From Patescibacteria group bacterium (GTDB taxonomy: Bacteria; Patescibacteriota; Patescibacteriia; UBA10025; JAHIVO01): 64,000 nt of DNA. Positions 24,056 to 41,787 of the stretch are shown here, one piece after another. The stretch spans positions 251,284 to 315,283 of the forward strand of contig JBAZKE010000001.1 in assembly GCA_041650915.1 (NCBI GenBank), in the 5' to 3' direction. A model generated the notes under the pieces. The model saw only the letters and a program-made list of their open reading frames with translations, did no database searches and was not told where the DNA came from. The translations under genes and the position numbers were made by a program. The first letter of the stretch is position 1. Each line of letters starts with the position of its first letter.

Positions 24056-27000
24056 ATGCAGGCAGATCAAATGCCAGCGCGCCAAAAAAAGAAAAAAATA
24101 ACCGGTAACATACCAGTGCGGCAGAACCGCAAAAAAACGATCGCAACGCAAAAAAAGCGGTCGGCTTGCCGCGTGTCGGCTGTCAGCTCCCGTTCAGGAG
24201 CCGCTAAACAGAATCAAAAGAATCGAACTCGAACAGCCGTGGGGTTTTATGGGCGATTTTTTGCTTTTTTAAACTTAGTAACCGGCTTTATCCGCGCGTA
24301 TCGGCCACTTATTATTGTCGCGCTTGTCGTCACGGCGACTGCTGGTTTATTTTATTTTTATTACCAGAGCACACTGGCTGCCGCGGCGCAGTACGTGATT
24401 GACACGCAGGCTGAGTGGGAAGCAGGCGAGTATTATCCGAACACGGTCGATACAAAAACAACTGCCGATGAAATTTCAATTAAACCAGGCGGCGGCGGCA
24501 CATGGGACGGCGATACGACCGGATTTCTCACTGACACCGCGGGTTATGAATACTGGTCGTACGACGGCCCGTCATACGGCGCTGACCTGACCACGGACGG
24601 CACATACATTTACCAGATCCTCGGCAACCGCAGGCCGTACCTGTTCCGCTACAATCCGGAAACGAATACATGGAAGCAGCTTGCTAATGCGCCGACTTCT
24701 TTTTATTACGGCGGTTCGATTACCTATGATGCGCATACGAAGAGCATCTTTGCCATTAACGGCGGAGAGCAGAACGAGACGGAACAGGCGACTAAGCACA
24801 TGTTCCAGTATGACATTGCTTCTGACACGTGGTCCAAATCAACTGACGCGCCGGATACGTTCGGCCTTGGTTCTTCAATCACGTCCAACGGCGCGGGCAA
24901 ACTGTTCGCGGTCCGCGGCAGGAATACCGACGAGCTGTGGGAGTACGACATTGATGATGAAACATGGGACCAGAACTATTCCCAGCTGCCCACGCCGTAT
25001 TATGTGTACCAGACCAATGGCCAGCCGCTCGAATTTGTGAATGAGCAGTACAGCGACGGGGAGGGCGACCACTGCACTCAGGGCTGCCTATTCACGCTGT
25101 ATGGTGGCGGCAACCGGAATTTTTTCCGTTTTGATATTGCCGAAAAAATCTGGTACCACACGACGCCCGTTGACCTGACTATCCCGGCCGCTCTTGGCGG
25201 CGTGAACTATGGATCGTCCTTCGCCTATGACAGCGACCGCGGCAATTTATTTTTGCTCCATGGCAATACCCAGTATCCGGCCACGACAACCATGGGTGAT
25301 AATTTTTCCACGTATGACGTATCTGCGCAGGACTGGGATGACGCGCCTGAAGACACGCCGGACGCGCCCGGATGGGTCACGTACGGCGGCGCCATGGTGT
25401 ATCTGGACGACTACGTGTATGCCATGCAGGGATATAATGGTTCTAGGCCTGGTTTGTGGCGGTATGACGCGGCAAACGGCTACTGGGATTCCATTTCCAC
25501 GCCGGACGTGGCAAACGGATCAAACCCAGCGCTTGGCCAGGGCACCCAGGGCAGCGGAGGGGAGAACGGCCACCTGGTATATGTTCCCAGCGGCACATAC
25601 TGTGCTGACGCTGGCGGGTGCCTGTATTCTTTCAGGGGCGGCAATTCAACGAATTACTGGCGGTATAATGTCGACGCCAAGACCTGGACTACCGATCTTT
25701 CTGTGGAGAATTTCGGAGCGTTACAGCAGGGTTCTTCGTTCTGCTACAACGGCGCGAACAGGATATATGCGCTACATGGCGAAAGTACACTTACATTTTA
25801 CCAGTATGAAATCACTGGTGAAGGCGATGATGATGAGGACACCTGGCAGGTGCTGACCAGCATGCCCGCAGACCATAGTGATGCTGATGATTATCCGGAC
25901 GCCTCTGCGAATGCGTCATACGGTTCTTCGCTTGCATGCATGGGCACCACGGTGTATGCGCTTAAAGGAGGGACTTCAGCGAGCGGAGCCAACCATTTCT
26001 TCAGTTATAATGGAGCGGCATGGACGGATTTGGAGCCATTGCCCCAGCGCGCGTACCTGGGCGCAAAGCTCGTTACAGTACCGTACGACGCGGGGCATAC
26101 AGAATGGTGCGCTGACGCGTCGGGTTGCGTATTCGCTTTTGCCGGAAACATGCGCGGCGACTGGTACCGGTATAATATCGGAGCGAACACCTGGACCGCG
26201 CTCACTGGCGACAATCTACCTACCGCGACTTATTATACGGCTTCATTGGCATACGACGGCCAGGGGAACATTTACGCGACTGACGGTAATTATGACACCA
26301 ACATGTGGAAGTACGAGATCAACGGGGATGACGGCACCTGGTACCAGATTGCGGATCTGCAGGCGCGCGTCGGCTACAATAACGCCCTTGCATACGACAG
26401 CGACAATAACGTGATGTACTTCCAGCAGGGCTTGGGCACGACAACGATAAGCCGGTTTACGCCGACGCCTGACGATTATATCGCATCGGCAACCTGGATT
26501 TCAGAGCCGCTTGATCTCGGGTATGTCAATTCGTTTTCAACACTCGGATATTTAGTTACGGAGCCGGACGATTCAGCGGTAACATTCCAGACCAGGACCT
26601 CGACAGACAAAGTGTCATGGTCTGACTGGGAAAATCTCGGGCTTTTGGACGCGATTGAGTCGGATGCGGGGCAGTATATCCAGGTTAAGGCGGTTTTGGC
26701 GGCATCAACTGACGGCGGCGATACACCGACTATAACGAGCATTACAGTGAATTACGACAAGGACGGCACAGCACCTGATAATCCTGATGTTGACGGGTAT
26801 GCTGATTCCACCGAAGCGACGGAAATTACTTCGGGCGCAGGCAACTTGTACCACTATACGAATCCGTACTTCGAGTGGGACGCTGCAACGGACGATTCCG
26901 GCATTGCCGGCTACTACGTGCGGTGGACTGACGATGAATTGGATGATCCCGATGAAAGCGAGGATTATTTCCAGACCGGCACCTCGTACGAAGTGAATAC

Positions 27001-30000
27001 GGTGATGCAAGAAGCGGACGGCCCGTATTTCCTGCGCATCGCGGTCAAGGACGATTCGGGAAATGTTTCAACTCCGGAAACCGCGTTTACCTACAATTAT
27101 ACCGGGGTTAATACCGCGACAGAAGCGGTGTGGGACGATCAGGCGGATTTCGAGGACGGGGAGACTGAAACGAATATCAAAACCGATGCGAACGGGGGAA
27201 CGAATATGACGCTTGATCCGATCAGCCCCGGCACGTGGATGGACTTGCCTGCGTCATTCGGCACTGCCGGCTATAACCATACCTCGTACAACGACACGTC
27301 GATCGCCTGGGACGGCGATGATACGATATATGCATTACGTTCGGTCAATTCGCAATATTTCCATAAATACACCATTTCAACAAAGACATGGGAGCAACTT
27401 GCAAATACCGGCGTGGCGGCGTACACTGGCTCGGCAATCGTGTACGTGCCTGACGGAACCACGGCTAACTGCACTGATGACGGCGGATGCGTCTTTGCCA
27501 CTATGGGCAACGGCACCGGATTCCGCAGATACGATGTCAATGCCAATGCGTGGACGGCGCTCGCTTCCGTGACGCTCTCAGTCGGCAATGGCGGCGGATT
27601 GATCTGGACGGGCGGCGACTACATCTACGCTTCCCGCGGCCAGGGCACCGTCACTATGTACCGCTACGATATTGACAGCAATGAATGGGACGATAACGCG
27701 GCGCCAGACCCTGATTACGCGTTTAATTATGGCGCGGCGTACAGTTATGTGCCAAACGGAAATTACTGCCTTGATTTGCAGGGCTGTATTTTTGCCACGC
27801 GTGGCGGCACTTCAACCCACGTGTACCGTTTTGACATACAGGGAGGTTCTTGGTCATTTCTGACCGCACTGCCGTCAGCATCGCCGCCCAAGGTGAATTA
27901 CGGCGCGACCATGCAGTATCACGATGGGTTCTTGTACTATATTGCCGGGTACTATTCGACTGATTTCCTGAAATACGACATTGCCAGCGATTTTTGGTCT
28001 GCGATGCCTGACCTGCCCACCACCCATTACTACGGATCCACGAATAATCTGGTGTACGATACTAGTTCGGACATCATGTATACGCTGCGCGGTTCGGCTG
28101 AATACAGTTTCCTGAGTTTTGACGTGGCGGAAGACGAGTGGCGCAACCCGGCAATCCCGCACGGCAGTACGACCAATGGTTTTTATTATGGCGGCGTGGC
28201 TTACGACGGGGATGACACGTTATATATTGCGCGCGGAAATGCCGGCAACATGGCTGATTTTTATAAATACACCATATCCACGAAAACCTGGCAGAATCTG
28301 CTGGACGTGCCGATGCGCATGAATACCGGATCCGATTTGATTTACGTTGACGGCAAGGTGTATGCGCTAACTGGCGCGCCGCCGTACGGCGAGGTATATA
28401 GCCGGATGTACGAATACGATCTTGAGACAGGTTTTTGGACTAGGAAAGGCGATCTGCCTGCTGCAGTCGGTGATGGCGCAAAACTGGTTTGGGACGGCAA
28501 TAATACTATTTATACTGCGCGCGGCGGCGCAACGGCAAGCTATACGGTGTATTCATATAAAATATCAGGAGCAGCGGGTGCAGGACAGTGGACGACCCAG
28601 GCAGAAAATGTGTTTGGCAATGCCACCGTATACCAGGGCGCATGTTCGGTATGGGATGGCGGCACCAAGCTCTATTTGATCCAAGGGCAGAATTTATCGA
28701 ATATCCTGTTTTGCAATCTTTCCACGGATGGCGACGGCAATGGCACGTGCGATTGGCAAGCGGATACGCTCACCAACCCCTCCGTCGGGATTCAGTACGG
28801 CAACGCCTGCGCTTTTTATGACGGTACTCCTGATGATTTAATTTTTATACCACGCGGGAATACAAATACCACAGATTTTCTTGTGTATAATGTAACGGAT
28901 GATACATGGGAGACTCGCACGCTGAATAACTTTTATTATGGCGGCCGTCTCGTGACCGGACCGGACGGAATTTTATACGGCTTCCGCGGGTATAACACCT
29001 CAACCATGGACCGGTACGTGCAGCAGACTGCAACGACCAGTTTTCAGCGTACCGGCACCTGGACATCACCAATCGTAACTGCGACGGATATATTTGATTT
29101 TGGAGGGTTCGAGGTAAACGATTCCGAAGAAGAAAACACCTCATTAACGTATGAAACGCGGACGTGTTCTGACGCCGGCTGTGCCGCTGACCAGGGAGAC
29201 GCGCACTGGTCGGACTGGGACGAGGTGTCCAACGCGCGAACGATAGAAACTACGGATTACTATACGGTAGATTCCACGCCGGCAACGTACATCCAGGTCC
29301 GCGCCACCTTCAATTCAGACCGCGTGTACACCCCAACAGTAAACGACTTTACCTTGAGCTACTATATTGACGGCACTGACCCGGACAATCCGGCCGCGCC
29401 GGTTGACGGGTACACATCGAGCGCAAAAACAACGACGATTGATAATAACGACTGGACAAACGATGCGACCCCATACTTTGGATGGACTGCGTCTGATGAT
29501 GCGGGCGGCATTGGCATTGAAGGATTCTATGTGTATTTCGGCACGGACGAGACCAAAGATCCGGTGGATGACGCGGCTGACCCGACCAACCTCGCCTATG
29601 ACAACAGCACGAACTACTATGAGGTTAATGATGATGGCACGACTGGTTCATGGAACGCGGCAACGCAGAGCAGCGATGCGATTACTGACGGCGATTACTA
29701 TTTGCGCATCAGGACCAAGGACTTAAACGGCAATGTAACTGATAGCGCAGTGGCCGCATTTACATTCCTTATTGACGAGAGCGTGCCGAATAATATCACC
29801 GACCTGCAAGTTGGGGATTATATGTCTGCGGAAGATGATTTTGATTTTACTTGGACTGCGGTGAATGATGAAGGCTCGTCAGGCATTGAACAGTACTGCT
29901 ACCATACTGGTTCATCGGCCGATACGTGTGTTGACGAGGGCACGATCTGCAGTGGTGGCACCTGCCTGGTTGAAAACGTCCCGCACTACCAGACGCGCGT

Positions 30001-32974
30001 CAATACGTTTTATGTGCGTGCGGTCGATGAAGCCCTGAATCCGGCCGCGTCATATGCTTCAACGGGGTATTTTTATACCGGCGGCCCGCCGGAACCGCCC
30101 GGAAGCGTGACGGTTGATCCGCTTGCGAGCGTGAATAACAACACGTTCACGATTTCTTGGGATTTGCCAACGACCTGCCTTGGTTCGACGCCATGTTCCG
30201 CGAGCGATATTTACCGCTATTGCTATACTATTAATGAAGAGCCGAGCTCGGAAACATGCGGTGCCAATTATAGCGGCGATGCAACTCCTTCGCCGGATGG
30301 CGGATGGACGACTGAAACTCAGACCTCAAGCCGCCTCCTGCCTGACTTTTCCGCCGCTACCCTGCAGGGCGAAAATATCGTTTATGTAGTGGCAATGGAT
30401 ATTGTGAGCAATATTGATTATTCCAATTATACGACTGCAACGTACGACTTCACTTCCACCGCGCCTGGCATGCCCGCGAGCATGGAGGCGACTGATACGT
30501 CTGACCGCACGACCAATAAGTATTCAGTCGTGCTGACGTGGGATGAGCCGGAAGATGTGGGTAGCGGCGTTGAGTCGTACAAGGTGTACCGCTGCGAAAG
30601 CGATTGCGAGAATCCGTCCACGGTGGATGACCCGCCCTCGAATTATACGAATATCGCCGAGGTGAATACGCTTGGTTATTTGGATACCAGTTTGGACAAT
30701 ACCATTACGTATTCTTACTTCGCGCGGTCGACCGGCACGGGCGGCACGATTTCCGGCAATTCCGCCGTGGCTGAAATAAAACCTGAAGGAAAATTCAAGT
30801 ACGCGCCAACTATCAGCGGCGCACCGGCAGTAACCGCGTACATCCGTTCCGCTTTGGTCGAGTGGCTCACCTTGAATGACCAGGACCAGTACGGCAACGT
30901 TATCGAACACTACGCCTCGTCATACGTGCAGTACGGAACAACGACCGCTTATGGCGAGGAAGACGGTACATCTGACCTGACGGACGAGCATTCGGTCACT
31001 CTGACAAACCTGACGCCGGATACCACGTACCACTATCGGTGCAAGTGGGTTGACCAGGACGGCAATGAAGGCTATTCATCTGATTATACGTTCACGACCA
31101 AGGGAGCGCCGTCAGCGCCGATTAACCTCGCGGTCGATCCGGAATCGAACACTGTGAATAGCTTTGGTTTTTCCTGGGACGCGCCGACTGATGAAGGCGT
31201 GACGGTCGCCGGGTATTACTATTCCATCAATAATATCCCAAACGAAACGAATACTACAAATATCGAGGAAACGAGTATCGAGGCATTCGATGCAGCGACC
31301 CAGCAGGGAACGAACACATTCTACGTTGTCGCGATCGATGACGGCGGCAATATCAACTACGCAAACTACGCATCAGTTGATTTCGAGGCGTATACAGAGC
31401 CGCCCAGCGAGCCCCAAGCCGTTACCATCACTGATTCGTCTGACCGCGATGCAAAGCGGTATTCGATAACTCTGACTTGGGACCCGCCCGAGGGATACAC
31501 AGCGGACGATGAAATATACTATACGATATATCGTCGGGAGGCAGAGGCAGACACTGAAGCTGCTGGCGCCGGCATTGCAAAAGCCGCGGCGGATGACCTG
31601 GAAGAGATTGCGACGATCACCTCGACCGGGTATCTTGATACCGGCCTGGACAGCTCAACGGAATATTTCTACCAGGTGACGGCTCGTGACAAGGCGCAGG
31701 CAACCTCGGATCCGACTGACATTGTTTCCGAAGTGCCGGAAGGGCGCTTTACCCAGCCGCCTGCGATCACCGAGAATCCCGTTGCAGTTTCCGATTCGTT
31801 TGCGGCCACGATTACCTGGCGGACGGAACGTGTCGCATCCTCGTTTGTCGATTTCGGCCTCACCAAGACGGACTGGACCGAGGAGCAGGGGACGGCTGAC
31901 ATGGTTGAGGAGCATTCGGTGCGGATTACCGGCCTGAAACCGGAAACGACCTACTTTTACCAGGTAAAGAGCATTGACGTTGATGAAAACGAGGCATACT
32001 CAAACGTATACTCGTTTGTCACGCTTGAAGCGCCGCGGGTGCTTGAGCTCGACGTGACTGATATCAAGCTGTTTGACGCTATCGTCACATGGGATACCAA
32101 TAAAGAAACGACTGCGGTGATCGAATACGGTACGACCACTGACTACGGGATGACGTATACCGATGTCACTCTTTCGTATGCGCTGACGCACACAGTCAAG
32201 CTTGATCATCTGGATGACAGCCAGACGTACCACCTGCGGATCAACGGCCAGGACCGTTCCGGCAATCCGATACAGTCGGATGACTATTCGTTTACCACTT
32301 TGACATTCCCCGAAGTATCCGATATATCATACGTAAACAAATCGGAGGGCCAGACGGAAATTTTCTGGAAAACGAACGTACCGACCACTTCCGAGGTGGA
32401 GTACTATAGCGACCAGATTGCCCCCAAGACCCAAGGCAATACGGCGCTTGTTACGGAACACGTGATTCTGTTGTACGGGCTGGAAGACGCGACTACGTAC
32501 CAGTTCAAAGTGCGCGGCTCGGATGAGTTCGGCTATGAGGCCGTGTCCGATGAGCGCGAGTTCACGACGCTCGAGGACACCACGCCTCCGGAAATATACG
32601 GCGTGCAGTCCGAGTCAAATACGATCGGTTCAGGCGACGCGTCAAAAATCCAGATTGTCATTTCGTGGAAGACGAATGAGCCGACCACGTCGCAAGCTGA
32701 TTTCGGCGTTGGTTTGGGCGGTTCTGACTATTCGGACCAGACTGAAGAAAACGCTGAGCTGGTAATGGACCATCTGGTGGTTATTTCCGACCTTGCGCCC
32801 GCAAAGACGTACCATTTCCGGGTCGTATCAACTGACAAGGCGGGGAACCAGACGAAATCAGGATCGCATACGGTGTTGACTTCACGGAAGCGCGAGTCAT
32901 TCCTGCAGCTTATCATTTCCAATCTGGAAACGACATTTTCGTGGCTCGGCAATGTCGGTTCCCTGGCAAAGTAG
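24056..32974 (+). CDS. giant (~2970 aa) membrane-anchored surface protein with multiple Kelch-like beta-propeller blades and many FN3-like domains
   Basis: Basic cytoplasmic N-terminus (K/R-rich), one TM (LIIVALVVTATAGLFYFYY), then long arrays of Kelch-like repeats (YGGS...W..Y, FRFDIAEKIWYH, WRYDAANGYWDS, YRYNIGANTWTAL...). Interspersed and C-terminal FN3-like domains (YHYRCKWVDQDGNEGYSSDYTFTT, YFYQVKSIDVDENEAYSNVYSFVT, YHLRINGQDRSGNPIQSDDYSFTT, YHFRVVSTDKAGNQTKS). Start set at the first ATG after the TTG given in the track. Confidence 0.75.
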   Translation: MQADQMPARQKKKKITGNIPVRQNRKKTIATQKKRSACRVSAVSSRSGAAKQNQKNRTRTAVGFYGRFFAFLNLVTGFIRAYRPLIIVALVVTATAGLFYFYYQSTLAAAAQYVIDTQAEWEAGEYYPNTVDTKTTADEISIKPGGGGTWDGDTTGFLTDTAGYEYWSYDGPSYGADLTTDGTYIYQILGNRRPYLFRYNPETNTWKQLANAPTSFYYGGSITYDAHTKSIFAINGGEQNETEQATKHMFQYDIASDTWSKSTDAPDTFGLGSSITSNGAGKLFAVRGRNTDELWEYDIDDETWDQNYSQLPTPYYVYQTNGQPLEFVNEQYSDGEGDHCTQGCLFTLYGGGNRNFFRFDIAEKIWYHTTPVDLTIPAALGGVNYGSSFAYDSDRGNLFLLHGNTQYPATTTMGDNFSTYDVSAQDWDDAPEDTPDAPGWVTYGGAMVYLDDYVYAMQGYNGSRPGLWRYDAANGYWDSISTPDVANGSNPALGQGTQGSGGENGHLVYVPSGTYCADAGGCLYSFRGGNSTNYWRYNVDAKTWTTDLSVENFGALQQGSSFCYNGANRIYALHGESTLTFYQYEITGEGDDDEDTWQVLTSMPADHSDADDYPDASANASYGSSLACMGTTVYALKGGTSASGANHFFSYNGAAWTDLEPLPQRAYLGAKLVTVPYDAGHTEWCADASGCVFAFAGNMRGDWYRYNIGANTWTALTGDNLPTATYYTASLAYDGQGNIYATDGNYDTNMWKYEINGDDGTWYQIADLQARVGYNNALAYDSDNNVMYFQQGLGTTTISRFTPTPDDYIASATWISEPLDLGYVNSFSTLGYLVTEPDDSAVTFQTRTSTDKVSWSDWENLGLLDAIESDAGQYIQVKAVLAASTDGGDTPTITSITVNYDKDGTAPDNPDVDGYADSTEATEITSGAGNLYHYTNPYFEWDAATDDSGIAGYYVRWTDDELDDPDESEDYFQTGTSYEVNTVMQEADGPYFLRIAVKDDSGNVSTPETAFTYNYTGVNTATEAVWDDQADFEDGETETNIKTDANGGTNMTLDPISPGTWMDLPASFGTAGYNHTSYNDTSIAWDGDDTIYALRSVNSQYFHKYTISTKTWEQLANTGVAAYTGSAIVYVPDGTTANCTDDGGCVFATMGNGTGFRRYDVNANAWTALASVTLSVGNGGGLIWTGGDYIYASRGQGTVTMYRYDIDSNEWDDNAAPDPDYAFNYGAAYSYVPNGNYCLDLQGCIFATRGGTSTHVYRFDIQGGSWSFLTALPSASPPKVNYGATMQYHDGFLYYIAGYYSTDFLKYDIASDFWSAMPDLPTTHYYGSTNNLVYDTSSDIMYTLRGSAEYSFLSFDVAEDEWRNPAIPHGSTTNGFYYGGVAYDGDDTLYIARGNAGNMADFYKYTISTKTWQNLLDVPMRMNTGSDLIYVDGKVYALTGAPPYGEVYSRMYEYDLETGFWTRKGDLPAAVGDGAKLVWDGNNTIYTARGGATASYTVYSYKISGAAGAGQWTTQAENVFGNATVYQGACSVWDGGTKLYLIQGQNLSNILFCNLSTDGDGNGTCDWQADTLTNPSVGIQYGNACAFYDGTPDDLIFIPRGNTNTTDFLVYNVTDDTWETRTLNNFYYGGRLVTGPDGILYGFRGYNTSTMDRYVQQTATTSFQRTGTWTSPIVTATDIFDFGGFEVNDSEEENTSLTYETRTCSDAGCAADQGDAHWSDWDEVSNARTIETTDYYTVDSTPATYIQVRATFNSDRVYTPTVNDFTLSYYIDGTDPDNPAAPVDGYTSSAKTTTIDNNDWTNDATPYFGWTASDDAGGIGIEGFYVYFGTDETKDPVDDAADPTNLAYDNSTNYYEVNDDGTTGSWNAATQSSDAITDGDYYLRIRTKDLNGNVTDSAVAAFTFLIDESVPNNITDLQVGDYMSAEDDFDFTWTAVNDEGSSGIEQYCYHTGSSADTCVDEGTICSGGTCLVENVPHYQTRVNTFYVRAVDEALNPAASYASTGYFYTGGPPEPPGSVTVDPLASVNNNTFTISWDLPTTCLGSTPCSASDIYRYCYTINEEPSSETCGANYSGDATPSPDGGWTTETQTSSRLLPDFSAATLQGENIVYVVAMDIVSNIDYSNYTTATYDFTSTAPGMPASMEATDTSDRTTNKYSVVLTWDEPEDVGSGVESYKVYRCESDCENPSTVDDPPSNYTNIAEVNTLGYLDTSLDNTITYSYFARSTGTGGTISGNSAVAEIKPEGKFKYAPTISGAPAVTAYIRSALVEWLTLNDQDQYGNVIEHYASSYVQYGTTTAYGEEDGTSDLTDEHSVTLTNLTPDTTYHYRCKWVDQDGNEGYSSDYTFTTKGAPSAPINLAVDPESNTVNSFGFSWDAPTDEGVTVAGYYYSINNIPNETNTTNIEETSIEAFDAATQQGTNTFYVVAIDDGGNINYANYASVDFEAYTEPPSEPQAVTITDSSDRDAKRYSITLTWDPPEGYTADDEIYYTIYRREAEADTEAAGAGIAKAAADDLEEIATITSTGYLDTGLDSSTEYFYQVTARDKAQATSDPTDIVSEVPEGRFTQPPAITENPVAVSDSFAATITWRTERVASSFVDFGLTKTDWTEEQGTADMVEEHSVRITGLKPETTYFYQVKSIDVDENEAYSNVYSFVTLEAPRVLELDVTDIKLFDAIVTWDTNKETTAVIEYGTTTDYGMTYTDVTLSYALTHTVKLDHLDDSQTYHLRINGQDRSGNPIQSDDYSFTTLTFPEVSDISYVNKSEGQTEIFWKTNVPTTSEVEYYSDQIAPKTQGNTALVTEHVILLYGLEDATTYQFKVRGSDEFGYEAVSDEREFTTLEDTTPPEIYGVQSESNTIGSGDASKIQIVISWKTNEPTTSQADFGVGLGGSDYSDQTEENAELVMDHLVVISDLAPAKTYHFRVVSTDKAGNQTKSGSHTVLTSRKRESFLQLIISNLETTFSWLGNVGSLAK

Positions 32975-33171: not shown

Positions 33172-34050
33172 ATGTTTGGCAGAAAAAAGAAAAAAACTGA
33201 AGCAGTATCCGCCGCCCGGAATTCAGGGGCAGGTATGGCGGCGCCAGCAAAAAATACAGATGGAATCCAGCAGCAGAAAGCTCCTGATGCAACTTCGTCA
33301 GGCATTGGAAAACCTGGGGAGATAAAAACGGCTGAGCTGCCCGAAGAACAAAAAAAGCCGGTTATCCTGCTGGAGCGTGTCAATAAAAGTTTTGACCTGG
33401 GAAAAACGGTCGTCCAAATTCTGAAAGACATCAACGTGCAGATATTTCCGCGCGAGTTTATCGTTATCCTCGGGCCGTCCGGAAGCGGCAAATCAACGCT
33501 CTTAAACACGCTTCTTGGGCTCGAACCCCCGTCAAGCGGACGTGTTGTCATGAATAATATCGATATTACTCGGAAGAAGCAGGACAAAATAGCAAAAATC
33601 AGGTACGGATTGTTTGGCATCGTATTCCAGCGGCCAGAGTGGGTACGGTCATTAAGCGTCGTGCAAAATGTCGCATTACCGCTCTCAATTAACGGGACAG
33701 AAAAAGATAAACGGATGCGTATCGCGTGGGAAAAGTTGAAGCTGATCGGCATGGATACTCATGGCAAGTACTTCCCGACGGAATTATCTGGCGGCCAGCA
33801 ACAGAAGGTGACTTTGGCGCGTGCATTGGTAAATGATCCGCAGGTTATCATTGCCGACGAGCCGACTGGCAATCTAGACAGCGCTTCAGCGGATCGCGTT
33901 ATGGATCTGTTTAAAAACTTGAATGAGAGGTTCCATAAAACCATTATCATGGTTACCCACAATATCGATTACGTGCGGTATGCGTCCCGGACCATTTATA
34001 TCCGTGACGGAAAAGTCATCGAGGGAAGCGAGCAGTTTTTATCGGGATAA
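33172..34050 (+). CDS. ABC transporter ATP-binding protein, MacB/LolD/FtsE-like, with a ~65-aa low-complexity N-terminal extension
   Basis: Walker A GPSGSGKSTLLN, signature LSGGQQQKVTLARAL, Walker B IIADEPTGNLD, H-loop VTHN. Confidence 0.85.
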   Translation: MFGRKKKKTEAVSAARNSGAGMAAPAKNTDGIQQQKAPDATSSGIGKPGEIKTAELPEEQKKPVILLERVNKSFDLGKTVVQILKDINVQIFPREFIVILGPSGSGKSTLLNTLLGLEPPSSGRVVMNNIDITRKKQDKIAKIRYGLFGIVFQRPEWVRSLSVVQNVALPLSINGTEKDKRMRIAWEKLKLIGMDTHGKYFPTELSGGQQQKVTLARALVNDPQVIIADEPTGNLDSASADRVMDLFKNLNERFHKTIIMVTHNIDYVRYASRTIYIRDGKVIEGSEQFLSG

Positions 34051-34065
34051 GAAACGACCGGCAAT

Positions 34066-35313
34066 ATGAAGATAGGGTTTACCGTCTTTTTATCAGCGAC
34101 GAATTTACGGCGCAGGAAGCTGAGGAGTTTTTTGACGATCGGCGGCATGGCAATCGGCATTGCCCTCGTAGTATTCCTCGTGTCGCTCGGTTTCGGGCTG
34201 CAGCGGATGATTGTCAGCCAGATCGCGAATGTCGAGGCGCTCACCATTCTTGACGTGTCAAAAGGCGAGTCAACGCTTCTTGCATTGGACAAGGATACGG
34301 TTGATTCGTTCAAAGATTTGGACAATGTGGATAACGTGAGCCCGTCACTCTCGCTCTCCGGCCAGATTACGCATGCCGAGTCAGTCACCGATGTGGCGAT
34401 TTATGGCATTGAGCCCCAGTTTCTATCCATGGAGGGGATCAAAGTAAATTATGGAGCAGAATTTTCAAATGCGACAGCCCAAGAAATTATCGTAACGTCA
34501 ACTGCCCTGAATCTGATCGGGCTTGGTGCGCCCGAAGAATCTGTGGGAGCTGAATTGCTCCTGAAGATGCTTGTTCCACAGAAGATTGAGGGCACTGAAG
34601 AAGAGGAATTGGTGGCAAAAGAAGTAGCGGTTACAATCAGCGGAGTAATCATAGAGGATGATGAGTTAACCCTCGCGTATGCGCCGTTGGAGTTTTTAAC
34701 TTCGCTTGGCTTTACGCCCAATTACAGCGCGGCAAAGGTCAAGGTGGATGATAAAGATGCTGATTATGACGTCGCAAAGGTAAAAGTAACGGACGAGTCA
34801 AAGCTGCCTGAGGTCCGCGCACAGATTGAGGCTATGGGGTACCAGGTTGATTCCGTCGCGGATACGGTCGGACAGATTGACCAGATTTTCGTCATTTTTG
34901 AAATCGTAGTTGCCGGGTTTGGCGCGATCGCATTGCTGGTTGCCGCTATCGGTTCGTTAAATACATTGACCGTATCTCTCTTGGAACGGACGCGTGAGAT
35001 CGGCCTCATGAAGACCCTTGGCGCGACCTCGGGAGACATCCTGCGCTTATTTTTAGTAGAGTCAGTTCTCATCGGCGTGACCGGAGGCATCGCCGGCATT
35101 TTATTGGGCATTGGGACTGGCAAGTTGGCCAATACCGGCATTAATTTCCTCGCTAGCAGGCTCGGCGGGGAGTCAGTTAATATTTTTAGTACGCCGGCAA
35201 TTTTTATCGCGATTATTTTAGCAATTATTTTAATTGTAAGCGTCATAACCGGCCTGTATCCTGCACGCCGTGCAGGCAGGATCAATGCCCTTGACGCATT
35301 GCGATACGAATAA
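34066..35313 (+). CDS. ABC transporter permease, FtsX/MacB-type, with a periplasmic domain
   Basis: N-terminal TM, large extracytoplasmic domain, C-terminal FtsX-like 3-TM bundle with LLERTREIGLMKTLGATSGDI. Confidence 0.8.
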   Translation: MKIGFTVFLSATNLRRRKLRSFLTIGGMAIGIALVVFLVSLGFGLQRMIVSQIANVEALTILDVSKGESTLLALDKDTVDSFKDLDNVDNVSPSLSLSGQITHAESVTDVAIYGIEPQFLSMEGIKVNYGAEFSNATAQEIIVTSTALNLIGLGAPEESVGAELLLKMLVPQKIEGTEEEELVAKEVAVTISGVIIEDDELTLAYAPLEFLTSLGFTPNYSAAKVKVDDKDADYDVAKVKVTDESKLPEVRAQIEAMGYQVDSVADTVGQIDQIFVIFEIVVAGFGAIALLVAAIGSLNTLTVSLLERTREIGLMKTLGATSGDILRLFLVESVLIGVTGGIAGILLGIGTGKLANTGINFLASRLGGESVNIFSTPAIFIAIILAIILIVSVITGLYPARRAGRINALDALRYE

Positions 35314-35322
35314 CTAACGCAT

Positions 35323-35997
35323 ATGCCGCCAAAAAGTTCACAGACATTATTTGCCCAGAAAAAACGGCGGGTCATCGGGGAGATGATCCGAAAGGCGGAA
35401 TTGAAGAACAAGAACGCCTGGGTTTCGATTCACCGCTCTTCAAAAGAAGACATGATTACGTATGAGAGCAAAGGTTTTGTCGTTTCGATCAATGGGAGCG
35501 GGACGCTTGCCATGGACCATGCCCAGTGCAAAGAAGCGGGGCTGTTGTCCGCATACGTCGTTGGTCACGGCGGCATCGTGATCAATGGCGGCAGGTCGTC
35601 CGGGATCATAGCGGCGTCGTCACATGCGGCGGGGCCGCATAAAATCGGGATCGTTTTTCCCGAGATCGAAAAGGAGGCGGATGATGCGGGATCCAAGGCG
35701 CTCGTCAATTCGCCGCAACCCAGGAATGAACTTTTAAGCACGTGCGCTCCGATCATCGTGATCTTCCGCGGCGGGCTCGGGACGCTGATGACGCTCCTGC
35801 GGTCCATCGTACATATCAAGAACAGGCCGTATCATCCTGACCAGCTGCCCCAGATGGTTTTTATCAGCAATTACTGGATCGGGCTTCTGACGACCCTAAT
35901 GAACATGGGTACGCTTCCCCGCGAGTTTATCGTCGCTTTGCATTTTTTTGATAGTGCACAGGATATTATCAACAAAATTCCTTCGCAGGAAGGATAA
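35323..35997 (+). CDS. SLOG-superfamily Rossmann protein (LOG/TIGR00730 or TIGR00725-like, DprA/Smf-related fold)
   Basis: IIVIFRGGLGTLMTLLRSIV resembles the LOG PGGxGTxxE motif. Glycine-rich YVVGHGGIVINGGRSSGIIAA N-terminal nucleotide-binding-like segment. Assignment by motif only. Confidence 0.45.
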   Translation: MPPKSSQTLFAQKKRRVIGEMIRKAELKNKNAWVSIHRSSKEDMITYESKGFVVSINGSGTLAMDHAQCKEAGLLSAYVVGHGGIVINGGRSSGIIAASSHAAGPHKIGIVFPEIEKEADDAGSKALVNSPQPRNELLSTCAPIIVIFRGGLGTLMTLLRSIVHIKNRPYHPDQLPQMVFISNYWIGLLTTLMNMGTLPREFIVALHFFDSAQDIINKIPSQEG

Positions 35998-36009: not shown

Positions 36010-36480
36010 ATGCCAATGAGCGAGAGCAAGAAAATAATCATAATAATCGTTTCTTCGGTTGTCGGTTTAGGCATTATCATCGCCGGGGTAGGATTTTTTA
36101 TCCTTTCAAACAGCGAGCCGAATGACAATGGGTCCAATGAGGTGATTCCGCCAGCGAACACGGCGTCAAGCAACACCAATAGCATCGAAAATGTGAATAA
36201 CGCGCCGGCCATCGCGACAAACAGCGAAATAAGCGTTGAGGGCACTGTATTTATAAAAGGGTATTCGACTCCGAGCGAATCGTATGGCGTACTGACGACT
36301 GACGGGAATGAGATCGGCCTTGGGAAATATGATTCCATGAAAGAGCAGTTTCGGCCGTATATCGGGGATAAGGTAGCGGTTACGTTCAGCAATGTATGCA
36401 GAAGCACCAATGCGGACTGCTGCAAGACAGTTTGCTTCTATTGTGGTACAGTAAAATCGTGGGAACCGCTTGATGAATAG
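36010..36480 (+). CDS. small membrane-anchored protein with a Cys-rich C-terminus, unknown function
   Basis: TM KIIIIIVSSVVGLGIIIAGVGFFIL, S/N/T-rich linker, C-terminus ...CRSTNADCCKTVCFYCG. Confidence 0.4.
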   Translation: MPMSESKKIIIIIVSSVVGLGIIIAGVGFFILSNSEPNDNGSNEVIPPANTASSNTNSIENVNNAPAIATNSEISVEGTVFIKGYSTPSESYGVLTTDGNEIGLGKYDSMKEQFRPYIGDKVAVTFSNVCRSTNADCCKTVCFYCGTVKSWEPLDE

Positions 36481-36557
36481 GGGCAGGGAGGAAACTGCCT
36501 GCAGGATGCCCGGAGAAGCGGTGTTACTAAGCATTGAGAGGGGATACCAGCATACCG

Positions 36558-36941
36558 ATGCCCGAACAGAAAAAGATACTTATCGTCGAGGATGAACAGG
36601 CGATTCGCCAGGCACTGCGCAAATCGCTGAGTGCAACGGAGGGCATCGCCATCTATGAGGCAGAAAACGGTGAAAAAGCGCTTGAGATGATTGCCACAAG
36701 CGCGCCTGATTTGATTTTACTTGACGTCATCATGCCGAAGATGCACGGGATTGACATGTTGAAGACATTGCGCACCGGCCAGCAGCATCGGGACATACCG
36801 GTCATCCTGCTGACCAATTACGCGGATGACCCCAAAGTTATCGAAGCGGTCAAGAATGGCTTGTGCGAGCTGATGGATAAAACGAAGTGCAGACTCGATG
36901 ATGTTGTAGTCAGGATAAAACAAAAACTGGGGGTCGCATAA
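36558..36941 (+). CDS. stand-alone response-regulator receiver domain protein (CheY-like), paralog 1
   Basis: KILIVEDEQAIRQALRKSL...APDLILLDVIMPKMHGIDML (acidic pocket plus phospho-acceptor Asp). No output domain. Start moved to MPEQKKILIV. Confidence 0.8.
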   Translation: MPEQKKILIVEDEQAIRQALRKSLSATEGIAIYEAENGEKALEMIATSAPDLILLDVIMPKMHGIDMLKTLRTGQQHRDIPVILLTNYADDPKVIEAVKNGLCELMDKTKCRLDDVVVRIKQKLGVA

Positions 36942-36990
36942 CATCGACCTAAGTAAGAGTACTTACAATTGTTAATGATTCCATTATTGT

Positions 36991-37218
36991 ATGGACAAGC
37001 AGGGACAACAGCCGACCGAGGCGCAGAAAAATCTGATTTCCACCGTTTCGCATAAGTTAAAAGGCCCATTGACCACTATTAACCTCTATACTGAAGCGTT
37101 GCTGTCGGGAAGCGTCGGTAATCTAAGCGATGAACAGAGGCAGTATGTCCAGGAGGTGCATGATGCAAGTAAAAAAATGGTTGTGTATGTGAAAGACCTG
37201 AAGAATATTTTTAATTAG
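36991..37218 (+). CDS. orphan HisKA/DHp-domain fragment (75 aa) with no HATPase_c domain
   Basis: H-box LISTVSHKLKGPLTTINLYTEALL fits the HisKA pattern SHELKTPLT. The protein ends 40 aa later. No kinase ATP-binding domain anywhere in the cluster. Confidence 0.55.
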   Translation: MDKQGQQPTEAQKNLISTVSHKLKGPLTTINLYTEALLSGSVGNLSDEQRQYVQEVHDASKKMVVYVKDLKNIFN

Positions 37219-37251
37219 ATTCATTGCTGGATGATTGATTGAATAAACTCT

Positions 37252-37629
37252 ATGGTCGGACAAAAGAAAATACTTATCGTTGAGGACGACCAGTCAGTAC
37301 GGGTTGTGCTGGGAAATGAATTCCGGAGGATGGGGTACCAGATCATTGAAGCGGAAAACGGCGAAGCGGCAGTTGCGTTAGCACTTGCCGAGCATCCGAA
37401 TCTGATTCTGCTGGATGTCATCATGCCGAAGATGCACGGCATGGACATGCTCCGCAAGCTGCAGGAAAACGAGTGGGGCAAGAGCGTGCCGGTCGTTTTG
37501 TTGACGAATTTTTTTGATGACCCGCGCGTTATGGAAGCGGTGAAAGAAGGCCGGTGCGAGCTCCTCAGCAAATCTGAGGCAAAGCTGGAGGATATCGTGA
37601 ATAAGGTGCAGGAAAAAATTGGGGAATAA
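37252..37629 (+). CDS. stand-alone response-regulator receiver domain protein, paralog 2
   Basis: KILIVEDDQSVRVVLGNEFRRMGYQIIEAENGEAAVALALAEHPNLILLDVIMPKMHGMDMLRKLQ. About 55% identical to paralog 1. Confidence 0.8.
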   Translation: MVGQKKILIVEDDQSVRVVLGNEFRRMGYQIIEAENGEAAVALALAEHPNLILLDVIMPKMHGMDMLRKLQENEWGKSVPVVLLTNFFDDPRVMEAVKEGRCELLSKSEAKLEDIVNKVQEKIGE

Positions 37630-37653
37630 CAACGGCTGGCTGTCTATAGCCAT

Positions 37654-38007
37654 ATGCTGAAGGAAAAAAAGATATTGATTGTTGAGGACGACCCGATGCT
37701 ATTGCACCTTTTAGCAAATGGTTTTCGGAAGGCCGGGTATACTGTCTTTGAGGCGGTAAACGGGCACCAGGGCATTGAAACCGCATCACAAGAAAAACCA
37801 TCCATCGTCGTATTGGACATAATCATGCCGAAAGTCGACGGGGTGACGGTGTACAAGGCTCTTCGGGCATCCGGAGCCGTAATTGTCATCTGGACAAACC
37901 TTAGCCAGAAGGAAGTAGAGGCAGCAATCGGCGAATCCGGCATAGATTATCATGCAAAAGCGGAATGTTCGCTCGAGCAACTTATATCGCATATCAGGGA
38001 AATATAA
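37654..38007 (+). CDS. stand-alone response-regulator receiver domain protein, paralog 3
   Basis: KKILIVEDDPMLLHLLANGFRKAGYTVFEAVNGHQGIETASQEKPSIVVLDIIMPKVDGVTVYKAL. Confidence 0.75.
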   Translation: MLKEKKILIVEDDPMLLHLLANGFRKAGYTVFEAVNGHQGIETASQEKPSIVVLDIIMPKVDGVTVYKALRASGAVIVIWTNLSQKEVEAAIGESGIDYHAKAECSLEQLISHIREI

Positions 38008-38132
38008 AAAAAGATCAATATCACTATTTATTCATGCTTAAATCATTTGGTTTAAGTATTTTTCAGCTTTACAAATTGCAAAAAAAGTGTTAAAATTAGC
38101 ACACGCGCTAAGCCATTGAACATGCACGGTAC

Positions 38133-38528
38133 ATGTCTGACAATGTTTTAATCGCAACGCTCAAATATATTGCCATAGAGATCCTGTGGGATATTGTGTA
38201 CTTTCCGATCTGGTGGTATTCGAAAGGCCTCGTACGGATCGGGCGGTACTGTCTCGAGAGCGCTGAGTTCCACGTCTCGAGGCGCCTTGCGCTCGGAGTG
38301 TGGCTGAGGAGCATGTTCAAGCCGATGTACGGCGATTATACGAAAGAGGGCAGAATCATCAGCTTTTTCATGCGTGTCGTCGTACTCGTCTGGAAGCTCA
38401 TTGCGACGGTACTGTGGATGTGCGTGCTCGCACTCATCTTTTTTTGCTGGATTTTATTGCCATTCATCATCGTGTACTACATACTGTACCAGGTGTTTGG
38501 TGTGCCTTTTATTCCCTTCAGCAGGTAG
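38133..38528 (+). CDS. small multi-TM membrane protein, unknown function
   Basis: Hydrophobic, W/Y/F-rich (IEILWDIVYFPIWWYSKGL...LIFFCWILLPFIIVYYILYQVF). No family recognised. Confidence 0.4.
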   Translation: MSDNVLIATLKYIAIEILWDIVYFPIWWYSKGLVRIGRYCLESAEFHVSRRLALGVWLRSMFKPMYGDYTKEGRIISFFMRVVVLVWKLIATVLWMCVLALIFFCWILLPFIIVYYILYQVFGVPFIPFSR

Positions 38529-38533
38529 GTTGT

Positions 38534-41299
38534 ATGGAGACAGAAACAGGAAAATCTTTTGTACTGCTCACCTGCCCCTTGTGCGGCGGTACGAGCGTAA
38601 CGAACGAGGGCACGTGCAGCCGCTGCCGGGAGCAGGGTGTTTTTGCGTGGCATGAGGGAGATATCCTGCACTGGAGCAAGAAGATAGATACACTTCACAT
38701 TTTTGAGGAGGAGATTGAACGTGCGGTGAAGGCGCTCGTAAACGGCTTCCTCGTCTTCGTCGGTGTCGTCGGACTCATCGCCCTCTTCATTATGATGATC
38801 CGCACCGCAGGCTGGACTGACCACTTCTGGGAGGTATTCAGGGAACGCAACAGTCTCATGGCGATTTTTTCTATAACGCTCATTGCCGATTTGTACGCGT
38901 ACTACCGGATCCAGCGGGAATCGCTCATGGAGCGTACGGTAAAGGTAAAGCGGTTTGATCCGCTCCTTACGGAGGAGGAGCCGCCCGCGCTTTTTGACCA
39001 GGTCAGCTCGAATCCGGGCAAGGGGATGATCGACGTATCAGTGACCTTCACTGAGGACGCGACGCAGTCTGTTGAACGCGCATGGCAGCTCGCCCAGAAG
39101 TTAAAGCATGCAGAAGCTACGCCGCTCCACAGCTTTGCGACCGTCCTTTCGTACCCGCAGGCGAGGATTATCCTCGCGCGGCTTGGCGTCGATGGAAAGG
39201 CGCTCGTCGAGAAGATATCGCGGAGCCTCTATAAGCTGCCGAAGAAAGACCGCGGAGACACGCGGCTCTCCGGGAGCTTCCGGTCCATGTTGCTGTCCGC
39301 GTACGTCGAGGCGTACGAGGCGCGGCAGGAGAGGGTTGAGGCGCAGCACATGCTCGTCGCCGCGGTAAAGACCGACCCGACGGTGCGCGATATCCTGTAC
39401 GACATGGAGATTGAGCTTGATGAGGTCATCAACGTTGTCGAGTGGATCAATATTCAGCACCGGATCGCGGAACAGCGCCGCCGATGGCGGAGCAAGGCCG
39501 CCTACAAGTCGAAGGGCGTGATGAACAAGTCGATGACCTCCCAGGCAACGCCGCTGCTCGACAGGTTCAGCCATGATTTGACCTCGCTCGCCCGGCAAGG
39601 GGTGCTCGCGCCGTGCATCGGCAGGGACAGCGAGCTCGAACAGACGCTCCGGATCATCGAAGGCGGCAAGAACATCATACTCACCGGCCATCCCGGGGTC
39701 GGCAAGACGAGTGTCGTTGAGGGAATCGCGGCGCTTATGGCATCCGAGGAAGTCCCGGCTGTGATGCAGGATATGAGGTTTGTGAGCCTGTCGGTAGCGT
39801 CGCTCGTCGGTTCCGCGGGGCGCCAGGGCGAGCTCGAGGGAGTGCTGCTCCAGCTGATCAACGAAATCGTCCGGTCAGGTAATATTGTACTCTTCATCGA
39901 CAACATACAGAATATGGTCGGCGTCTCTACGCAGGGCGCAGAGAACCTCGACATTTCGGATATACTTGCAAACGCGCTGTCAAAGCGGCTTTTCTACTGC
40001 ATTGCAACGACGACGCCGCTCGATTTCCGCAGGTATATCGAGCCATCAAGTTCGCTGACTTCGGTTTTCCAGCGGGTCAATGTCAGCGAGCCGGACCGCA
40101 ACGGAACGATCAGAATCCTCGAGGGGAAGGCAAACTCGGTCGAGGCGAAGAACCAGGTATTCTTTTCGTATGATTCCATCGAACGCGCCGTCATCCTGAG
40201 CGAGCGGTACATCCACGAACGCTTCCAGCCGGAGAAGGCGATCTCGATTCTCGACGAGGTCGGCGTTTACGTGCGCCGCAAGAAGGGCGCCAACTCAATC
40301 GTGACCGGAGAGGATGTCGCGGAAATCGTTTCGCATAAGACGAACGTGCCGGTGACAAAAATTACCGAGAAGGAAACAGAGAAGCTGCTTCAGCTCGAGG
40401 AGCGGATCCACCAGCGCATGGTTAACCAGGACGAAGCGGTCAAGGCCGTGTCGACCGCACTCCGGCGTGCGCGTGCGGAGCTGCGCGATATCGGGCGTCC
40501 GATCGTCAACCTGCTTTTCCTCGGGCCGACCGGCGTCGGCAAAACGGAGCTCGCCAAGACCGTCGCTGAGACGTACTTCGGATCGGAGGATACCATGGTC
40601 AGGCTCGATATGTCCGAGTACCAGGAAAAGTCCTCAATCAGCCGCATGATCGGCTCGCCGCAGGGAGTCGGGGGCAGCGGGGAAGGCGGGTACCTCACAG
40701 AGGCGATCCGCACGCAGCCGTTCTCGCTGCTGCTGCTCGATGAAATGGAGAAAGCTCATCCGGATATCCTCAACCTCTTCCTGCAGGTGATGGACGATGG
40801 CCGCCTGACGGATACGCTCGGCCGTACGATTGACTTCACGAACGTGATTTTGATCGCGACGTCGAACGCCGGTACGCCGATTATCCAAAAGCGGATCAGG
40901 GAGAATGTCCCAATCGAAAAAATAAAAGACGAGCTCATCAACGAAGAGCTCAAGCAGTACTACCGTCCCGAGTTCCTCAACCGTTTCGACAACATCGTCG
41001 TGTTCACGCCGCTCTCATTCGAGCATATCCTGAAGATCGTTGATCTTATGCTCGGTAATGTGCGGAAGCGGCTCGCCGTGAAGGGCATCCAGCTCGAGGC
41101 GACGAAGGAAGCGAAAGAAGAGCTCGCACGGGAAGGGTATGACCCGGTGTTTGGCGCACGGCCATTGCGCCGCGCGATCCAGGAGCGGGTTGATAACGCC
41201 CTCGCGAATTACCTGCTGCAGGGCAAGATCGGCAGGCGTGACGTCGCCGTGCTCGAAAAAGGCGGCAATATTTCAGTCCGTTCGGCGCCGCCGATTTAG
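38534..41299 (+). CDS. Clp/Hsp100-family double-AAA+ ATPase (ClpA/ClpC-like, no long M-domain) with an N-terminal C4 zinc ribbon and two TM helices
   Basis: N-terminus CPLCGG...CSRCREQG, then TMs LVNGFLVFVGVVGLIALFIMMI and LMAIFSITLIADLYAYY, then a Clp_N-like repeat region. NBD1 Walker A GHPGVGKTSVVEGIA, NBD2 Walker A LFLGPTGVGKTELAKT, Walker B LLLLDEMEKAHPDILNLFLQVMDDGRLTD. The start is the ATG at 38534; the track start at 38300 is an extension. Confidence 0.85.
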   Translation: METETGKSFVLLTCPLCGGTSVTNEGTCSRCREQGVFAWHEGDILHWSKKIDTLHIFEEEIERAVKALVNGFLVFVGVVGLIALFIMMIRTAGWTDHFWEVFRERNSLMAIFSITLIADLYAYYRIQRESLMERTVKVKRFDPLLTEEEPPALFDQVSSNPGKGMIDVSVTFTEDATQSVERAWQLAQKLKHAEATPLHSFATVLSYPQARIILARLGVDGKALVEKISRSLYKLPKKDRGDTRLSGSFRSMLLSAYVEAYEARQERVEAQHMLVAAVKTDPTVRDILYDMEIELDEVINVVEWINIQHRIAEQRRRWRSKAAYKSKGVMNKSMTSQATPLLDRFSHDLTSLARQGVLAPCIGRDSELEQTLRIIEGGKNIILTGHPGVGKTSVVEGIAALMASEEVPAVMQDMRFVSLSVASLVGSAGRQGELEGVLLQLINEIVRSGNIVLFIDNIQNMVGVSTQGAENLDISDILANALSKRLFYCIATTTPLDFRRYIEPSSSLTSVFQRVNVSEPDRNGTIRILEGKANSVEAKNQVFFSYDSIERAVILSERYIHERFQPEKAISILDEVGVYVRRKKGANSIVTGEDVAEIVSHKTNVPVTKITEKETEKLLQLEERIHQRMVNQDEAVKAVSTALRRARAELRDIGRPIVNLLFLGPTGVGKTELAKTVAETYFGSEDTMVRLDMSEYQEKSSISRMIGSPQGVGGSGEGGYLTEAIRTQPFSLLLLDEMEKAHPDILNLFLQVMDDGRLTDTLGRTIDFTNVILIATSNAGTPIIQKRIRENVPIEKIKDELINEELKQYYRPEFLNRFDNIVVFTPLSFEHILKIVDLMLGNVRKRLAVKGIQLEATKEAKEELAREGYDPVFGARPLRRAIQERVDNALANYLLQGKIGRRDVAVLEKGGNISVRSAPPI

Positions 41300-41353: not shown

Positions 41354-41746
41354 CTATGCTCCGGTCGCGGACCGCAGGGTGCCGGTGAGGGTTGAGAGGA
41401 TTGCGAATGCTGCGAGCGCGATTACGGTGCCGAGGGCTGAGTACTTGAGTATCTGTTTTGCTTTGGTCACGCGCTCTTCGTTGCCGGCAGCCGTCATCCA
41501 CATGAAGCCCCCGTAGATGACCATCACCACGCCTGCGAGCCCGAGGAAGCCGAGCAGGATTTGCCCGGCCCGGATCACCATGTGCGGCGGCTCCTGGTCA
41601 GGGAGCTTGGTCGCGTCTTTGATTTTATTTCCCGGATCAAATTCAACGCCGAGCGCCGTTTTTACCCTGCCAATGAGAAGGTATGCGCTAAAAGCAGTTG
41701 AGCCAAGCCAGCCGATTGTTTTCCAGGAAATTTTTTTCATACGCAT
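41354..41746 (-). CDS. TrbC/VirB2-like (conjugative or type IV secretion) pilin-family small membrane protein
   Basis: Signal/TM, then GFLGLAGVVMVIYGGFMWMTAAGNEERVTKAKQIL, which matches the VirB2/TrbC pilin core (hydrophobic helix - YxGfxymtsgGnxEkvxkAKxxi), then a second TM. 130 aa. Confidence 0.55.
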   Translation of the reverse strand: MRMKKISWKTIGWLGSTAFSAYLLIGRVKTALGVEFDPGNKIKDATKLPDQEPPHMVIRAGQILLGFLGLAGVVMVIYGGFMWMTAAGNEERVTKAKQILKYSALGTVIALAAFAILSTLTGTLRSATGA

Positions 41747-41756
41747 ATCCTACGTA

Positions 41757-41787
41757 CAGTATATGAGATGCGAGGCGTTTGTGTCAA
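41757..41787 (-). promoter_or_regulatory. strong sigma70-like promoter for the pilin-like gene (TTGACA - 18 nt - TATACT), ~17 nt from the ATG
   Basis: Minus-strand reading gcTTGACAcaaacgcctcgcatctcaTATACTgtacgtaggatatgcgtATG. Confidence 0.5.

Follow-up and report, generated by a model that had tools for sequence, protein, structure and literature searches.

Hsp100/Clp proteins are textbook soluble threading machines. Among them, ClpE carries an N-terminal C4 zinc finger, and FtsH, a member of the classic single-ring clade of AAA+ proteins, spans the membrane with two transmembrane (TM) helices and acts together with small membrane proteins. The window analysed here, a stretch of 64,000 nucleotides of contig JBAZKE010000001.1 from a Patescibacteria group bacterium, encodes a membrane-anchored, Hsp100/Clp-like double-AAA+ protein (hereafter the ATPase), directly preceded by the gene of a small helical membrane protein (hereafter the partner; coordinates in Table 1). 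In the reading that we favour, with a probability of roughly 70%, the ATPase would be a variant of the Hsp100 machine that is anchored in the membrane and independent of ClpP and DnaK, with its first AAA+ ring (D1) as scaffold and its second (D2) as motor, in a stoichiometric complex with the partner and acting on a membrane-associated client. Rather than an ordinary ClpC, the two proteins probably form a membrane machine that had not been described before. The Hsp100 fold itself is known; the new features are the anchoring, the ring economy and the dedicated membrane partner.

Fold and membrane module

The ATPase shows the hallmarks of class-I Hsp100/Clp proteins, namely tandem AAA+ modules with Pfam matches to AAA (residues 381-493, 73 bits), AAA_lid_9 (523-614, 55 bits), AAA_2 (655-821, 206 bits) and ClpB_D2-small (827-901, 89 bits). 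It does not reach the cut-off of ClpB (TIGR03346, 639.1 vs 1232.1), ClpA (TIGR02639, 564.6 vs 993.15; PRK11034, 423.4 vs 1350) or ClpV (TIGR03345, 518.5 vs 884.95), and no Pfam families of the type VI secretion system were called among the neighbouring genes scanned. ClpB is the top-scoring match in both NCBIfam and PDB; in the PDB sequence alignments D2 scores 380 bits against the D2 of Thermus thermophilus ClpB, and the closest D1 relative by score is ClpC (175 bits). An AlphaFold2 (AF2) model built on a family alignment of 68 sequences has a mean predicted local distance difference test (pLDDT) value of 84.9, and Foldseek superpositions of its AAA core on protomers of ClpC, ClpC1 and ClpB give target-normalised TM-scores of 0.82-0.86. 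The N-terminal domain appears similar to Clp_N. The Pfam match is weak (18.2 bits, under the cut-off of 20.7, with one repeat covered), the alignment with ClpA is continuous from residue 174, and the model places eight helices at 174-324, like the Clp_N double repeat, followed by a disordered linker, D1 and D2. Most homologues carry a precomputed PF02861 match, and W304 is invariant.

An identical protein of 921 amino acids (aa) is present on an NCBI record from a Patescibacteria metagenome-assembled genome. About 80 full-length homologues (40-75% identity, around 910-925 aa) share the same N-terminal module at their start, and those with a taxon name all belong to Patescibacteria lineages, for example Kerfeldbacteria, Uhrbacteria and Nomurabacteria. 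Because these homologues open with the same module, the N-terminal 180 aa are a genuine part of the protein. The ATG lies 5 nt past the TAG stop of the partner open reading frame (ORF), which is on the same strand. An alternative GTG start at 38300, which gives the longest ORF (999 aa), was rejected: it runs out of frame across part of the partner ORF, and the homologues all begin at the ATG position.

The N-terminal module, a zinc ribbon followed by two hydrophobic helices, is conserved in the family alignments and in species-level ORFs. In the AF2 model, the ribbon strands span residues 9-13, 36-40 and 43-46. Across the family it is of the DnaJ CxxCxGxG type, with weak matches to DnaJ_CXXCXGXG in 18 and to Anti-TRAP in 15 of 30 N-terminal modules; the ribbon of the window protein is degenerate (CPLCGGTS and CSRCREQG). 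Among 68 species-level orthologues from GTDB representative genomes, on which all family tallies below are based, 61 keep the ribbon and seven have lost it. The first TM segment is strongly hydrophobic (Kyte-Doolittle hydropathy KD19 up to 2.87), and this segment is hydrophobic in 66 of the 68 species; the second is also conserved as a hydrophobic stretch in the family, with a median KD17 of 1.66. A short loop helix lies between the two in the model. The most plausible arrangement, from hydropathy and the AF2 model, is an in-out-in hairpin whose loop of about 15 aa lies outside; it would put the zinc ribbon, the N-domain and both AAA+ rings at the cytoplasmic membrane surface. This topology is favoured because AAA+ rings depend on ATP from the cytoplasm, where a four-cysteine zinc site is also to be expected. 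FtsH and Msp1/ATAD1 likewise hold an AAA+ ring at the cytoplasmic membrane face via N-terminal TM helices. However, the present protein differs from them by its Hsp100 double-ring architecture, its short extracytoplasmic loop, the lack of a protease domain and the absence of the pore aromatics on which those two depend.

ATPase rings and coupling elements

The two rings were aligned to T. thermophilus ClpB, Bacillus subtilis ClpC, and the ClpB and ClpC sequences within the family alignment. In D1, the window protein keeps Walker A (GHPGVGKT, 385-392), its Walker B reads D456-N457 in place of DE, S510-V511 stand where the two arginine fingers (RR) would be, and G430-R431-Q432 take the place of the KYR pore loop. 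In D2, Walker A (GPTGVGKT, 664-671), Walker B (D736-E737), the arginine finger R817 and sensor 2 (GARPLRR, 874-880) are all kept, and the pore loop GYVG has become GVGG, V712 replacing the tyrosine. The same division runs through the family. A canonical D1 Walker A is found in 30/68 species and an arginine at the D1 finger positions in four, and neither a D1 Walker B DE nor a D1 pore-loop aromatic occurs in any. The D2 Walker A, Walker B and arginine finger are present in all 68, and sensor 2 in 67, the exception being one alignment gap. The D2 pore loop, full-length in the window protein, is shortened in 46 species, and an aromatic is retained there in about 20. Since the catalytic residues of D1 are lost and those of D2 kept, D1 is, as judged by its motifs, a pseudo-ATPase and D2 the sole competent motor. 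The canonical tyrosine grip appears to have been largely abandoned in the family.

The elements by which Hsp100 proteins couple to ClpP or DnaK are also missing. The M-domain is wholly absent, with about 112 aa fewer than in T. thermophilus ClpB and about 54 aa fewer than in ClpC, and appears as a clean deletion in the family alignment. The segment of D2 between the SNAG and RPEF motifs is 38 aa long and devoid of a ClpP tripeptide in all 68 species, compared with 36-42 aa in the reference ClpB sequences and 44-45 aa with an xGF tripeptide in ClpC. ClpP independence is well founded at the sequence level, because the docking loop is missing both in the window protein and in all 68 homologues. 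Moreover, tblastn with Escherichia coli and B. subtilis ClpP queries found no significant clpP match in the 64-kb window or in 818 kb comprising the window and related loci.

Compared with ClpB/Hsp104, the protein thus shares the N-domain-D1-D2 order, the large and small D2 domains, the absence of a ClpP loop and a TM-score of about 0.85. It differs by having no coiled-coil M-domain, a DN Walker B and no arginine fingers in D1, neither pore-loop tyrosine, a score well under the ClpB equivalog cut-off, and, in addition, the N-terminal zinc ribbon, the membrane anchor and the dedicated small membrane partner. It resembles ClpA in the lack of a long M-domain, ClpC in its nearest D1 and ClpE in the N-terminal C4 zinc element, but these three are set apart from it by the missing (I/L/V)G(F/L) loop, the inactive D1, the membrane anchor and the absence of the short M-domain of ClpC.

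The initial annotation of this stretch, made from the letters alone, had proposed much of this architecture. The ORF with a zinc ribbon and two predicted TM helices is borne out by hydropathy, the AF2 model and the homologues, which also place the start upstream of the TM helices, and the lack of an M-domain by the deletion relative to ClpB; the Clp_N-like domain is backed, less firmly, by the sub-threshold Pfam match, the ClpA alignment and the model. The absence of a ClpP-docking tripeptide, with the possible ClpP independence drawn from it, was upheld by the multiple alignment with ClpB and ClpC, and that of clpP from the window by tblastn. Its description as a ClpA/ClpC-type protein with two complete AAA+ modules holds for the two AAA+ folds, but not for their completeness, given the loss of the D1 catalytic residues and of the D2 tyrosine.

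Partner gene and family distribution

The partner matches no Pfam or NCBIfam family. Its conserved motifs are D20, FPxWWY (24-29), G32, FxPMYGD (62-68), GRxIS (73-77), R81 and P110, and D20, FPxWW, PMYG, GRxIS, R81 and P110 are invariant among the partners of the first seven loci compared. The AF2 model (pLDDT 90.7) consists of helices 4-52, 54-60 and 71-122, the conserved PMYGD loop linking the two long ones, and it has no PDB fold match with an E-value below 2. An intramembrane salt bridge that would join ATPase residue D119 to partner residue R81 was considered and dropped, as an aspartate at the D119 position is found in only 35 of the 68 species.

All of the first seven loci, in which the identity of the ATPase to the window protein declines from 68% to 42%, encode directly upstream, on the same strand, a protein of 120-135 aa without a Pfam match, and these small proteins are mutually homologous. 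A profile of the partner retrieved 1158 proteins, and the names among the 120 matches listed are all "hypothetical protein", from Patescibacteria or unclassified bacteria; the profile also has relatives in 454 species genomes. Adjacency was tallied on 80 retrieved loci, 77 of which had enough downstream sequence, and the ATPase gene directly follows the partner in 73 of these 77 species genomes. The distance from the partner stop to the ATPase ATG has a median of 3 nt and lies between -23 and +12 nt in 63/68 species, a spacing typical of translationally coupled subunits. In the window a promoter-like site precedes the partner gene, and no terminator-like site was seen between the two ORFs. The partner is the one robustly conserved neighbour of the ATPase gene.

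The ATPase family and its partner are apparently restricted to Patescibacteria. Many contigs with the two-gene cassette bear the title "uncultured Gammaproteobacteria bacterium" (TPA binchicken; for example L011, L014, L015 and L052) and one (L081) the title "Candidatus Udaeobacter sp."; such taxon labels are probably wrong or mere placeholders. NCBI and JGI annotate the ATPase as "ATP-dependent Clp protease ATP-binding subunit", a name that is misleading for this family. Full-text literature searches and the candidate phyla radiation papers PMC10633639, PMC6744442 and PMC4508563 yielded no account of the family or of its partner.

A profile of the N-terminal module (zinc ribbon and hairpin), searched against 1.84 billion cluster representatives, retrieved 372 proteins. 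Those checked for domains are Clp-like; the outliers among the matches listed are short fragment-like sequences and four unrelated proteins with repeated zinc motifs. Two length classes are present, full-length proteins of about 900-930 aa and proteins of about 585-631 aa that end after the D1 small domain. The latter, D2-less class (P0335, P0312, P0339, P0302 and P0369; L090:799-2619) combines the same N-terminal module with a Clp_N-like domain and a D1 that is highly degenerate, and could represent an inactive subunit or cofactor of the full-length ATPase. The ORF of P0335 is complete, stop codon included, on its contig, and its upstream neighbour is a (partial) gene of 244 residues and not the partner of about 130 aa.

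One protein of 1231 aa (P0283) is an apparent fusion of the ATPase with a C-terminal Glycos_transf_4 domain (MraY/WecA type). At the locus L008:5607-9838 the two-gene cassette belongs to a dcw-type cluster, with mraZ, rsmH, a small ORF, the partner, the ATPase and Glycos_transf_4. The dcw placement and the MraY-type fusion may hint at a role in the cell envelope, and the fusion may be a gene-calling merge.

Candidate mechanisms and genomic neighbourhood

In the mechanism that we favour, the ATPase would assemble as an Hsp100-like hexamer, with D1 as a scaffold, structural or nucleotide-binding, and D2 as the sole motor, and would function without ClpP and without DnaK coupling. It would form a stoichiometric membrane complex with the partner, and the D2 ATPase cycle would remodel or extract either the partner or a client associated with the membrane. 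Candidate sites for binding clients or adaptors are the zinc centre of DnaJ type and the Clp_N-like domain. Strong processive threading of the ClpB/ClpC kind is doubtful because the window protein has a valine in place of the D2 tyrosine and most family members have lost or deleted this residue. A role in the extraction or quality control of membrane proteins, as suggested in the initial annotation, is a reasonable guess.

Several points weigh against this mechanism. The second helix is only marginally hydrophobic in the window protein (KD19 1.37) and has an aspartate inside, and a less probable alternative to the hairpin is a single membrane pass that leaves the zinc ribbon on the outer side. 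The members that have a D2 tyrosine, about 20/68, imply that the ancestral, and perhaps the current, mode could still be threading, and V712 may retain some grip on the polypeptide. In four of the 77 genomes (L029, L047, L050 and L080) unrelated genes follow the partner, so that either the pairing has exceptions or these genomes carry the ATPase gene at another place. The negative result for clpP covers the window and related loci, and a clpP, clpB or other Hsp100 gene may lie elsewhere in the genome. Finally, the hexamer, the partner complex and the client are all elements that we infer.

The limited span of the clpP search, together with the database name, the single-stretch alignment with ClpA and the absence of an M-domain, as in ClpA, would also suit an ordinary ClpC/ClpA-type unfoldase that feeds a ClpP encoded elsewhere in the genome. 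This is hardly credible, as the (I/L/V)G(F/L) helix-loop-helix is absent from all 68 species and the segment that would hold it has the length found in ClpB, the ClpA models are missed by a wide score difference (565 vs 993, and 423 vs 1350 for PRK11034), D1 is catalytically dead by its motifs and without a pore-loop tyrosine, and the search that was made found no clpP. A stand-alone disaggregase of the ClpB/ClpG kind, tethered to the membrane and threading aggregated proteins close to it, would agree better with the top scores to ClpB and with a D2 of ClpB-like length without a ClpP loop. The cysteine-rich domain of DnaJ binds non-native polypeptides, and the zinc centre of the ATPase could do the same. 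It is nevertheless unlikely: the absence of the M-domain leaves no DnaK coupling, the ClpB score is about half of its cut-off (639 vs 1232), the window protein lacks both pore-loop tyrosines, most family members have a shortened D2 loop, and D1 is inactive whereas that of ClpB contributes to disaggregation. The initial annotation had further pointed to the adjacent pilin-like gene and an array of REC and HisKA ORFs, and had named nearby large adhesins as candidates for extraction or quality control. In a fuller form of this view, the ATPase would service the pilin or the adhesins (extraction, assembly or quality control), possibly under REC/HisKA control. The pilin-like gene with its strong, near-consensus promoter does lie 54 nt downstream, the REC and HisKA ORFs are present, the products of the ATPase and pilin-like genes are both membrane proteins, and the adjacency recurs in L001 and L003. 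However, the pilin-like gene is convergent with the ATPase gene, is transcribed separately and occurs downstream in 11 of the 80 related loci, all of the closest clade, the REC array occurs in two, and distant members of the family lie in unrelated contexts, in the dcw cluster or beside rpsB-tsf. The pattern agrees with local synteny in a housekeeping region, which also leaves the link to the adhesins unsupported, and such a servicing role is very unlikely. Pilin, REC and GlyRS, neighbours in the closest relatives only, were ruled out as functional partners; what the comparison of genomic contexts did find conserved is the small membrane protein upstream, which had not been mentioned.

The absence of pore aromatics (D1 in 68/68, D2 in about 48/68) and the shortened D2 loop in 46/68, with strictly kept D2 ATPase motifs, bring to mind a torsin-like switch, in which the D2 cycle would act through the TM hairpin on the partner and gate or remodel a membrane complex or the bilayer without threading. 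Torsins with their LAP1/LULL1 partners, known in part from PMC5425593, are also membrane-associated, Clp-D2-related ATPases with no aromatic pore loops and with membrane-anchored partners. The obligate, tight coupling to a membrane partner gene fits such a switch, and the D2-less paralogue with the same N-terminal module recalls the inactive AAA-like relatives that act as cofactors there. On the other hand, torsins are single-ring, eukaryotic and lumenal, and their arginine finger comes from the cofactor, while R817 is intact here. The partner is small and helical and matches neither an AAA+ family nor a PDB fold, unlike LAP1/LULL1. About 30% of members have GY in the D2 loop, and the loop of the window protein is full-length with a hydrophobic valine. 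We regard this switch as tentative and on balance improbable, and the resemblance to torsins as one of mechanism, by analogy, and not of family membership. It is with the same reserve that we mention a new bacterial membrane machine, an Hsp100 ring without threading in which D2 hydrolysis would drive conformational work on or through the partner (remodelling of the membrane or envelope, or gating); if true, this function could be lineage-defining for a large branch of the Patescibacteria.

Under the favoured reading of an anchored Hsp100 variant with a dedicated partner, a whole Hsp100 subfamily would be membrane-bound, inactive in D1, without ClpP and DnaK coupling elements, largely stripped of its pore-loop tyrosines and tightly coupled to a small integral membrane protein, which broadens the view of the Hsp100 scaffold and places a bacterial counterpart beside torsins and other non-canonical relatives. 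Patescibacteria are microbial dark matter with minimal genomes, and the conservation of the cassette in hundreds of their species argues for an important, possibly envelope-related role. With two proteins and one ATPase, the pair is a defined and experimentally tractable target.

Table 1. Features of the ATPase, its partner and neighbouring genes (positions in the window)
Feature	Position	Strand	Details
Hsp100/Clp-like double-AAA+ gene, membrane-anchored (ATPase)	38534..41299	+	921 aa; ATG at 38534, stop ends 41299
C4 zinc ribbon, residues ~9-46	38558..38671	+	cysteines C14, C17, C28, C31
Juxtamembrane helix and TM1, residues 53-92 (hydrophobic core 67-91)	38690..38809	+	hydropathy; AF2 helix 53-92
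TM2, residues ~107-126	38852..38911	+	hydropathy; AF2 helix 107-131; contains D119
Clp_N-like N-domain, residues ~170-325	39041..39508	+	ends in long basic helix 295-324 with conserved NVVEW motif
D1 AAA+ module, residues ~340-585	39551..40288	+	pseudo-ATPase by motif loss
D2 AAA+ module and small domain, residues 586-921	40289..41299	+	all catalytic motifs present
Partner gene, 131-aa helical membrane protein	38133..38528	+	directly upstream of ATPase gene
Promoter-like site TTTACA-17-TAAAAT	38068..38096	+	TG before -10 hexamer; 10/12 consensus match, by match alone
T4SS_pilin-like (PF18895) / Mbov_0395-like small membrane protein gene	41354..41746	-	32.8 bits
Promoter of pilin-like gene	41787..41758	-	11/12 sigma-70 consensus match
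Three stand-alone REC ORFs	36534-36941, 37252-37629, 37654-38007		array 36534-38007
HisKA-only ORF, 75 aa	36991-37218		phospho-acceptor domain interrupting the REC array
MacB-type ABC transporter pair	33172-35313	+	ABC_tran ATPase, then MacB_PCD and FtsX permease
LOG/lysine-decarboxylase-like gene	35323-35997		after MacB-type pair
Membrane-anchored 156-aa ORF, no family	36010-36480		after LOG-like gene

The wider neighbourhood is a syntenic housekeeping block with the MacB-type ABC transporter, GlyRS, an M16 peptidase, an AI-2E transporter and RsmI. Neither a catalytic HATPase domain nor an output domain was seen in the REC/HisKA array. The large adhesins referred to in the initial annotation presumably include the product of a very large ORF on the forward strand (24053-32974; TTG start, 2973 aa).

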